DNA of 64,000 nucleotides from an uncultured Gammaproteobacteria bacterium (GCA_964503265.1 CAZCYO010000001.1:25119-89118); one strand, 5' to 3'; positions 42,505 through 45,299 are shown, numbered from the stretch's first letter. Program-made: numbers and translations. The notes: generated from the letters alone by a model not told the origin.

Positions 42505-42516
42505 TCTTCTGCTATG

Positions 42517-42589
42517 TGACCCCACGGGAATTCGAATCCCGGTTCTCAGAATGAGAATCTGATGTCCTAGGCCACTAGACGATGGGGCC
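42517..42589 (-). tRNA. tRNA-Glu (anticodon CUC)
   Basis: Hand-folded cloverleaf: acceptor GGCCCCA/TGGGGTC, D-arm GTCT..GGAC, anticodon stem TCAGA/TCTGA loop TTCTCAT, T-arm CGGGA-TTCGAAT-TCCCG, discriminator A, no encoded CCA. Confidence 0.7.
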
Positions 42590-43544: not shown

Positions 43545-43745
43545 ACGACAGATCTGTGTGAAGCACTGACTTCCCTATATAGGTGAGAGGAGGACGATGC
43601 GTTCATTCTCGTGACTAACCCTGATTTGATCGGGGCTAATGCGTCACCGAGAAAAGCACTTCCTGACTTCATCTCGGTCAGTGCTTTTTTCGTTTTAAAA
43701 TCCTTATCGCCCGATGCTCTGCAGTAGCATCAGGGATAAAGAATA

Positions 43746-44093
43746 TTACTTAACCCTACTCAATGCTTCATCAGCATTTCCATAGAGTTCGACAGCGATA
43801 GTCCGAAAACTATGTGGGCCGAGTCGATCAAACGATGTGAGTCGTCCAAATCCTAGTGTGTCTTCGCCTCTATTTACTGGCTGAACACCTGTGAGAAGTC
43901 CCGCTCCGAGTTGTTGAATCTCTTCTGGCGTCAAGTTTCCACTTTCTGGCGCGACAAGAATTCTCGTATCAGTATACGAGAGCCCTTTTCGTTCATTGAC
44001 TCGTGGTGAGCTTGTTTCGACCACAGTAAGTCCTGGCTGTTCGCTGAGCGATCGTGTAATTTCTGCGTATCTACTTCCATTTTCAATTGACAT
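43746..44093 (-). CDS. hypothetical protein, G+C-rich
   Basis: 115 aa, GAGGTG SD upstream of ATG 44093. Confidence 0.4.
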   Translation of the reverse strand: MSIENGSRYAEITRSLSEQPGLTVVETSSPRVNERKGLSYTDTRILVAPESGNLTPEEIQQLGAGLLTGVQPVNRGEDTLGFGRLTSFDRLGPHSFRTIAVELYGNADEALSRVK

Positions 44094-44142
44094 ATTTTAT
44101 TCACCTCTCATTCCTAGATTAATTATCTACAATAGTATGTGA

Positions 44143-44360
44143 TGCCGCATTTCTAAAAGAAATGTGGCGCCTCTCTTCGTTCGTATGCCCTGGAATCGTT
44201 ATGATTCCAGGATCTTCGGCTTGTTTAAGCCTCGAGATCTTCGTTCGCCAGCTGGCGAACTACGACCTCCCGCTATTTAAAATTGTATGTGTTGCCACAT
44301 TTCGACATTTTTCCCACAAAAAAACCTCCATCTACAGTAGACGGAGGTCAGTGTTTTTTT
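44143..44360 (+). ncRNA. candidate cis-regulatory leader / small RNA with alternative helices and intrinsic terminator
   Basis: aaatgtggc (44159-67) can pair with gccgcatttct (44143-53) or gccacattt (44292-300); internal hairpins cctggaatc/gattccagg, ggctt/aagcc, cgttcgccag/ctggcgaac; terminator cctccatctacagtagacggagg + T7 (44324-44360). Confidence 0.35.
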
Positions 44361-44540
44361 CTTATTACAGAAATCCCTCGTCTACTTTAGACGGAGGAAC
44401 AGCAAATAGAAAAAGAAAAATGTCGATTCATGAAATATATCCTAGCATATAGATTTATTTAAATGCAAGGGTATTGTAATAGATCTTTTGAAGCTAGAGA
44501 ATCATTGCTGAGGCATTTCTGATAGTGTATAATTTTCCTC

Positions 44541-45299
44541 ATGAGTGCCCACATATCCCTCTCAGTAATTATTCCTTGTTTTGAAGAAATGGCTAATCTC
44601 CAAAAGGGCGTACTTGATAAAGTAAATAACTATCTTGCACGTAAAAAATTCGATTATGAAGTCATTATTGTGGATGATGGTTCACATGATGGAAGTGTGG
44701 ATTTTGTTGAAGAATTTATTACTGACAACCCCAAATTTAGACTCATTAAAAACTCTCATACTGGTAAGGCTGGGGCAGTCACAGCTGGCATGCTTACTGC
44801 TAAACATGAGTTATCGCTCTTTACAGATATGGATCAGGCAACTCCTATTGAAGAACTCGAAAAATTACTTCCGTATTTTGATGAAGGATATGATGTGGTG
44901 ATCGGATCACGTGCAAATACTCGAAAAGGTTCTCCACTGATTCGTCAATTTATTTCTCGTGCGAATATGGTTCTCCGGAAAGCCATTGTCGGAGTGAGAG
45001 ATATCTCAGATACTCAGTGTGGGTTTAAAATGTTTCGTACATCAGTCGCAAAAGATCTTTTTAGTAAAGTAAGTACCATTCATAATGGATTTAAGCATAT
45101 AAATGGATCGAGTGTCTCAAGTGGCTTTGATGTCGAGTTACTTTATATCGCTGAAAAAATGGGAAATAACATAAAAGAAGTTCCAGTACGATGGCTTTAT
45201 GTTGAGACGAGACGGGTTAATCCAGTGAAAGATTCGATTGACGGAGTGAATGAATTATTAAAAATTAAAAAAAATGCGCTTTCTGGGAAATATGATTGA
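44541..45299 (+). CDS. GT2 glycosyltransferase (polyprenyl-phosphate sugar synthase, DPM1/ArnC-like)
   Basis: LSVIIPCFEE...VIIVDDGSHDGS, DxD (TDMDQ), QCGFK. Confidence 0.85.
   Translation: MSAHISLSVIIPCFEEMANLQKGVLDKVNNYLARKKFDYEVIIVDDGSHDGSVDFVEEFITDNPKFRLIKNSHTGKAGAVTAGMLTAKHELSLFTDMDQATPIEELEKLLPYFDEGYDVVIGSRANTRKGSPLIRQFISRANMVLRKAIVGVRDISDTQCGFKMFRTSVAKDLFSKVSTIHNGFKHINGSSVSSGFDVELLYIAEKMGNNIKEVPVRWLYVETRRVNPVKDSIDGVNELLKIKKNALSGKYD

Follow-up and report, generated by a model that had tools for sequence, protein, structure and literature searches.

A conserved minus-strand leader and probable cysteine-codon attenuator upstream of an uncharacterized 115-aa protein gene in Candidatus Levybacteria

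Control by leader-peptide attenuation is textbook knowledge, with most examples coming from Proteobacteria and Actinobacteria and from operons for amino-acid biosynthesis; the E. coli leader peptide TrpL has 14 codons, with tandem regulatory codons at positions 10 and 11. For the polycysteine leaderless short ORFs of mycobacteria, stalling at Cys codons has been proposed to relieve downstream repression (Canestrari et al., 2020, Mol Microbiol 114:93; doi 10.1101/834739). In the dissected case, Ms5788A, control is exerted on translation, by unmasking a Shine-Dalgarno sequence that is otherwise sequestered, and the loci carry cysteine-metabolism genes (doi 10.1101/834739). Cys-rich candidate leader peptides have also been described upstream of actinobacterial cys/cbs operons, without conserved terminator hairpins (Seliverstov et al., 2005; PMC1262725). 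Our literature search found no published report of leader-peptide attenuation in Patescibacteria/CPR.

The DNA analyzed here (64 kb in all, hereafter the window) is placed by relatives of its family-2 glycosyltransferase (GT2) in Candidatus Levybacteria, within Patescibacteria/CPR. A gap of 447 nt separates an ORF for a 115-aa protein (43746-44093, minus strand) from the GT2 gene (44541-45299, plus strand). We compared six loci: the window, L081, and L098, L099, L100/L101 and L102, the last four being distant members of the 115-aa protein family for which the genomic context was retrieved. The comparison delimits a conserved leader of 114 nt on the minus strand (44431->44318), and we have high confidence that it is a cis-regulatory leader with a terminator, preceding the 115-aa gene. 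Judged from sequence, this leader probably acts by attenuation, with ribosome stalling at Cys codons controlling read-through into the 115-aa ORF. The features of the locus are as follows.

44463-44468, minus strand: -35 box TTGCAT of the leader promoter, identified by sequence match; TTGnAn lies 17-18 nt upstream of the -10 element in all six loci
44439-44447, minus strand: extended -10 element TGC-TAGGAT, ending 7 nt before the leader ATG; TGnTAnnAT in all six loci
44387-44431, minus strand: leader ORF MNRHFSFSICCSSV, 14 codons plus TAA, without a Shine-Dalgarno sequence; present in all six loci
44399-44404, minus strand: tandem Cys codons TGC TGT (codons 10-11), the proposed sensing codons; Cys-Cys invariant in all six loci
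44375-44397, minus strand: hairpin 1:2 of the RNAalifold consensus (R1 CCTCCGTCTA, loop AAG, R2 TAGACGAGGG)
44337-44385, minus strand: predicted antiterminator helix 2:3, pairing R2 (44375-44385) with R3 (44337-44347) and excluding both 1:2 and 3:4
44324-44348, minus strand: terminator hairpin 3:4 (ACCTCCGTCTAC / GTAGATGGAGGT), called by the terminator scan and almost invariant in the six loci
44318-44324, minus strand: U7 tract adjoining the terminator stem, where the attenuated RNA of 114 nt is predicted to end
44094-44317, minus strand: lineage-specific structured spacer, forming the 5' UTR of the read-through transcript and holding the inverted repeat, three hairpins and a 30-nt direct repeat
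44234-44269, minus strand: long spacer hairpin, common to the window and L081 only
44101-44109, minus strand: Shine-Dalgarno sequence GAGAGGTGA of the regulated gene; AGGAGGTGA-like in all six loci
43746-44093, minus strand: regulated gene, encoding a 115-aa protein of an unannotated family
44528-44543, plus strand: the GT2 gene's own promoter (TATAAT, 7 nt, ATG), outside the attenuator element

On the gene strand the order of these elements is the same in all six loci: TTGnAn, 17-18 nt, TGnTAnnAT, 6-8 nt, the leader ATG, 27 nt, the Cys-Cys pair, hairpin 1:2, with the stop codon inside its loop or close to it, hairpin 3:4, the U7 tract (GGAGGTTTTTTT, invariant in six of six), a strong Shine-Dalgarno sequence and the gene. 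The distance of 6-8 nt from TGnTAnnAT to the ATG puts the predicted transcript start at or next to the AUG. A Shine-Dalgarno sequence is absent before the leader ORF in five of the six loci and all six have the leaderless distance from the -10 element, which argues that translation of the leader, if it occurs, starts at a 5'-terminal AUG. Among the short ORFs of the 64-kb window, only the leader combines an adjacent -10 box with tandem Cys codons. The predicted leader peptides are as follows.

Window: MNRHFSFSICCSSV
L081: MIRHFSLNMCCSFV
L098: MLSRFSQVICCSFV
L100: MNRHFFSAVCCTFV
L102: MNLHFSFNNCCSFV
L099: MHMNFSSAVCCCPRLT

The ORF has 14 codons in five loci and 16 in L099, where one inserted nucleotide changes the reading frame beyond the Cys codons; the ORF persists there and contains a third Cys, and its stop lies within R2. 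Every locus has exactly 27 nt between the ATG and the Cys codons. Cys10 and Cys11 show synonymous changes only (TGC/TGT), as does Phe5, and all three residues are invariant; codons 2, 3 and 7-9 vary, and codon 9, which adjoins the Cys codons, does so freely. Segment 1 starts 1-2 nt after the Cys codons, the final three leader codons lie in the 5' arm of hairpin 1:2, and the stop codon straddles the stem end and the loop of this hairpin. Because the C-terminal leader codons overlap region 1, their conservation may reflect RNA constraint rather than coding. Mean column identity of the leader is 80%, compared with 30-37% identity to the window protein for the proteins encoded downstream (63% for L081). 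Between L081 and the window, the hairpins, the flanking A/T runs and the stretch to 44431 are ~90% identical, compared with ~70% for the flanking coding DNA. Searched against the window and 89 other loci, a covariance model of the leader matched these instances only. A metagenome scan with the terminator pattern returned four unrelated terminators among the matches listed, and the conserved terminator pattern had no match in the viral contigs.

The leader resembles the trpL-type attenuators (the Trp, His, Phe, Leu and Thr leaders of Rfam) in its 14-codon leader with tandem codons at positions 10-11, in its four segments that can pair as 1:2 plus 3:4 or as 2:3, in comparable helix energies, and in an intrinsic terminator with a U-tract between leader ORF and gene. 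It differs from them in that the regulatory codons are cysteine, the Shine-Dalgarno sequence is missing and the start is apparently a 5'-terminal AUG; in addition, the target is a small uncharacterized protein rather than a biosynthetic operon and, as far as annotation shows, does not make or charge the amino acid that would be sensed, and the host belongs to the Patescibacteria (CPR). The closest published analogs are the mycobacterial polycysteine leaderless short ORFs, which share at least two consecutive Cys codons, with the 5' AUG leaderless start predicted here from promoter geometry. Unlike those ORFs, the present leader has a conserved terminator/antiterminator and a target outside known cysteine metabolism, and it occurs in a different phylum with no sequence homology. 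The actinobacterial cys/cbs leaders likewise carry consecutive Cys codons close to the stop of a short upstream ORF, but the terminator, which is the most conserved part here, is what sets the present leader apart from them.

Folding of the six sequences is compatible with both states that a four-segment attenuator requires. RNAalifold recovers hairpins 1:2 (44397-44375) and 3:4 (44348-44324), with pairing across the six sequences of 96% for 1:2, 98% for 3:4 and 97% for the terminator state overall. The stem sequence of the second hairpin is almost the same as that of the first; helix 2:3, with 11 pairs and 92% of cells paired in the six sequences, is therefore automatic, since R1 resembles R3 and R2 resembles R4. 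The calculated energies (-11 to -16 kcal/mol for 1:2, -15 to -18 for 2:3 and -12 to -17 for 3:4) are balanced in the way that such an attenuator needs. When a ribosome was modeled at Cys11, masking R1, the nascent RNA up to R3 folded into 2:3 in all six loci.

According to the attenuation model, transcription would start at or next to the A of the 5' AUG, giving a leaderless transcript, and a ribosome would translate the 14-codon ORF MNRHFSFSICCSSV. With charged tRNA-Cys plentiful, the ribosome would reach the stop codon in the 1:2 loop and cover region 2, so that 3:4 could pair and RNA polymerase would terminate at U7. If the ribosome stalled with Cys10 or Cys11 in the A site, region 1 would be covered and region 2 left free to pair with the emerging region 3, no terminator would form, and the gene would be transcribed. 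With zero translation, 1:2 and 3:4 would both form, leading to termination. The positions competent for read-through are codons ~9-11 only.

Covariation across homologous regions had been proposed in the first-pass annotation as a check; among the only six distinct sequences, double-sided changes are absent from 1:2, 3:4 and 2:3, because the main stems are almost invariant. An outer helix (P0), formed by codons 2-9 with the spacer between R2 and R3, extends 1:2 and is built from different complementary sequences in three loci: UCAGC/GCUGA in L099, CUGCAG/CUGUAG in L100 and CAACAA/UUGUUG in L102. Its summed energy is -49.2, versus -24.7 +/- 4.6 for shuffles, and P0 lends some covariation-like support. 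A further pairing involves a perfect 12-nt inverted repeat (44302-44313 and 44415-44426), by which, on the minus strand, leader codons 3-6 (UCGACAUUUUUC) complement the segment just after the U-tract (GAAAAAUGUCGA). This pairing is strong in L098, with matching changes (CGUUUUUC/GAAAAACG), weaker in L100, and missing from L099 and L102; it could fold the read-through transcript into a long closed stem.

An alternative is a switch in which the same minus-strand leader and terminator respond in trans to an RNA-binding protein (possibly the product of the gene itself) or to a small ligand, either of which would bind the two near-identical hairpins, the ATG and the ORF being incidental. Hairpin stems and loops are conserved beyond what pairing needs (CCTYCGTCTA...TAGRCGRGGG in six of six), neither hairpin shows compensatory covariation, and a motif present twice would suit a binder that acts as a dimer. 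We nevertheless regard a trans-acting factor as unlikely, for it leaves unexplained the 5' ATG at leaderless distance, the fixed 27-nt spacing, the invariant Cys-Cys with synonymous variation and the placement of the stop codon; moreover, the leader matches no Rfam family, and the RsfS/iojap-like fold predicted for the gene product (see below) is not a known RNA-hairpin binder. A translated leader peptide accounts for the conserved switch better than a ligand-binding aptamer does. A type III toxin-antitoxin system was considered separately and rejected, there being only two hairpin units, which differ outside their stems, no ToxN-like match, and conserved leader ORF features.

The Rfam scan that had been suggested for this region found no family at the gathering threshold in the window and the five related loci. 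With permissive thresholds included, these searches gave only sub-threshold matches typical of any terminator; the best in the window, RF01859 (Phe_leader), covers 44318-44432 on the minus strand and scores 30.4 bits versus a gathering threshold of 55.

The first-pass annotation had read positions 44143-44402 in the opposite orientation, as a plus-strand riboswitch or attenuator in which competing helices between GCCRCATTTC copies control the glycosylation cluster that begins with GT2. Much of what it described is present in the DNA. The inverted repeat GCCGCATTTCT / AGAAATGTGGC lies at 44144-44154 / 44158-44168, and a third copy (GCCACATTTC, 44294-44303) is the perfect complement of 44159-44168; GCCRCATTTC occurs three times within these 160 nt, versus an expectation of 0.18 copies across all 64 kb of the window. 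The three local hairpins (44189-44211, GGCTT..AAGCC and 44234-44269) and two related hairpins (44325-44347 and 44375-44397) exist as described, and the region folds much better than shuffled sequence on both strands (z = -5.6 for plus, -6.2 for minus). The competing helices are real in the window sequence, but they lie in the lineage-specific spacer and are not conserved: the segment that holds them is wholly absent in the four distant loci, L081 is without the first ~115 nt of the element as then drawn, and the competing helices, with two of the three local hairpins, are missing in L081 as in all other loci.

The strand and the target also had to be revised. The strong terminator described for the plus strand proved to be a good intrinsic terminator on the minus strand only, with U7 (44324->44318) immediately adjoining the stem there; the plus-strand T7 starts 5 nt after the stem, and the terminator scan calls the minus strand only. 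The promoter, the leader ORF and the stem-abutting U-tract are all on the minus strand, and the element accompanies the 115-aa minus-strand ORF, not the glycosylation genes, in six of six loci. The riboswitch label found no support, as there is no Rfam riboswitch match and the proposed plus-strand helices are not conserved. What stands of the original proposal is that a terminator/antiterminator RNA is present, with hairpins 44325-44397 as its core; its strand, its target and its helices had been misjudged.

The GT2 gene, for its part, has a perfect TATAAT (44528-44533) 7 nt 5' of its ATG, and (T/A)GTATAAT lies 6-8 nt before the GT2 ATG or GTG in nearly all Levybacteria loci whatever the upstream neighbor (L001-L097), which suggests that GT2, the first gene of the glycosylation cluster, is transcribed from its own promoter as a leaderless mRNA. 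The intergenic sequence was not found by blastn and nhmmer in 80 species-level Levybacteria GT2 loci, and the element is thus not linked to GT2. The closer GT2 relatives (L088-L097, 75-86% identity) have upstream gaps of 32-360 nt and varied neighbors, without the element. Since GT2 has its own conserved promoter and has relatives that lack the module, the element is not the leader of the glycosylation genes, and control of the GT2 cluster by a plus-strand switch is, in our judgment, scarcely credible.

A further possibility is that the minus-strand unit is an independent small RNA of ~114 nt ending at the terminator, and that the 115-aa gene is transcribed separately. Promoter, structured body and strong terminator do make a complete small unit, and the spacer between terminator and gene, which is 225 nt long in the window (137 nt in L081, 32-71 nt in L098-L102), could house a second promoter there. 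In L098, L102, L099 and L100, however, only 32-71 nt separate the U-tract from the ATG, with no promoter-like sequence seen, and the unit adjoins the 115-aa gene family on the same strand in six of six loci and occurs nowhere else in the loci searched. The limiting case is L098, where the stretch from U-tract to gene ATG is 32 nt, unstructured, and contains the Shine-Dalgarno sequence; this leaves no room for a promoter, and the gene must therefore be expressed by read-through. A free-standing small RNA is accordingly improbable, and read-through past a terminator under leader-peptide control remains the preferred reading.

The spacer of the window itself is a chain of local hairpins (z = -5.5 versus shuffles). 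Positions 44102-44215 are absent in L081, including the palindrome 44144-44168 (both partners) and the 44189-44211 hairpin. In the long hairpin at 44234-44269, the apical stem GCCAG/CTGGC of the window is replaced by TGAT/ATCA in L081 with full compensation, and a G-U pair, possible on the minus strand alone, slightly favors that strand. The spacer also contains a 30-nt direct repeat (44124-44153 / 44274-44303; 83% identical, exactly 150 nt apart), of which only one copy is recognizable in L081, and CGAACGAAGA occurs twice (44174-44183 and 44238-44247); these repeats suggest local duplication. The palindrome, the 30-nt repeat and the 44189-44211 hairpin are lineage-specific, and could provide extra structure to the UTR or a site that acts at the DNA level.

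As a DNA-level operator or a duplicated secondary promoter, the 30-nt repeat and the 44144-44168 palindrome would have been added in this lineage on top of the attenuator. A palindrome with 11-nt arms, a 3-nt spacer and further half-sites is typical of operators, and -10-like hexamers (TACAAT, TACTAT, minus strand) occur in each copy of the repeat. Yet no -35 or TGn element matches the conserved promoters, no gene for a regulator lies next to them, only one lineage has the repeats, and apart from one chance-level site there are no further copies in the window, so we hold such a function to be very improbable. Duplicated promoters as such were rejected for want of comparable -35 or TGn elements, and a MITE-like mobile repeat was rejected because the window contains no other copies.

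In L092 and L093, the histidine-phosphatase gene that in the window lies to the left of the leader and the 115-aa ORF directly abuts GT2, and the alignment with the window stops at 43694 and restarts at 44522; the stretch 43695-44521 is an insertion/deletion difference relative to these loci (L092:1575-1847). From this break in the alignment, we infer that the 115-aa ORF and the element form one module of ~830 bp that is either present or missing as a whole. The upstream neighbor of GT2 differs in every relative examined, marking a variable spot in the genome. In L081 (2930-4161) a tRNA gene and a large serine recombinase (Recombinase and Zn_ribbon_recom domains) come after the module, and in the window a tRNA-Glu gene (42516-42589) lies ~1.2 kb from the module, a setting faintly suggestive of an integration hot-spot or of mobile DNA. 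An ENA contig that is otherwise identical to the window (L082, 1130-1250) shows, in place of the two hairpins (44302-44397), a stretch of N and unrelated sequence; the repeated, palindromic hairpins probably broke the assembly or the scaffolding at this point.

The family of the 115-aa protein comprises ~18 small cluster representatives (102-131 aa) in an exhaustive profile search. One close homolog (63% identity) is encoded on L081 in the same divergent arrangement with GT2, and the four distant members (L098, L099, L100/L101 and L102) are 30-34% identical. Searches of Pfam, PHROGs and PADLOC and a sequence-profile search of PDB gave no match to the 115-aa protein, and Foldseek against PDB gave nothing significant. 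AlphaFold2 models are confident (pLDDT 82-85), and their best structural matches are ribosome silencing factors of the RsfS/iojap/MALSU1 type; the protein is predicted to have an RsfS/iojap-like fold. The likeness to RsfS/iojap (DUF143)/MALSU1 concerns the regulated protein only and lies in the predicted fold, there being no Pfam match. In L099, positions 2774-2859, just after the family gene, give a sub-threshold Rfam match to ohsC_RNA (35.7 bits versus 50), which is probably only the terminator of that gene.

For the regulated gene, no connection with cysteine metabolism is evident, and its sole tie to sulfur is a low content of Cys and Met. Cys makes up 0.09% of family residues (2 in 2261) versus 0.56% in the long ORFs of the window (P about 3e-4, a ~six-fold depletion), and internal Met 0.49% versus 1.99% (~four-fold), a statistic that is only indicative because the family members are related to each other. 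This composition fits a protein that would be made when sulfur amino acids, or cysteine, are scarce. More speculatively, and with little confidence on our part, the leaderless Cys-Cys peptide may report ribosome stalling, caused by tRNA-Cys shortage or translation stress, and switch on a sulfur-poor, RsfS/iojap-like ribosome silencer or protector. If so, host-dependent CPR bacteria would possess a self-contained circuit through which ribosomes signal starvation to ribosomes, on a small cassette that some lineages carry and close relatives lack.

For the locus, these findings correct the annotation, with the glycosylation cluster having its own promoter and lying outside attenuator control. If the Cys-codon attenuator operates as proposed, it would extend leader-peptide attenuation to the Candidate Phyla Radiation, with cysteine as the sensed codon, a leaderless 5' AUG and a non-biosynthetic target as its novelties. 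It would also offer a testable handle on how reduced, auxotrophic bacteria sense their amino-acid supply, as well as a first functional clue for the unannotated 115-aa protein family.
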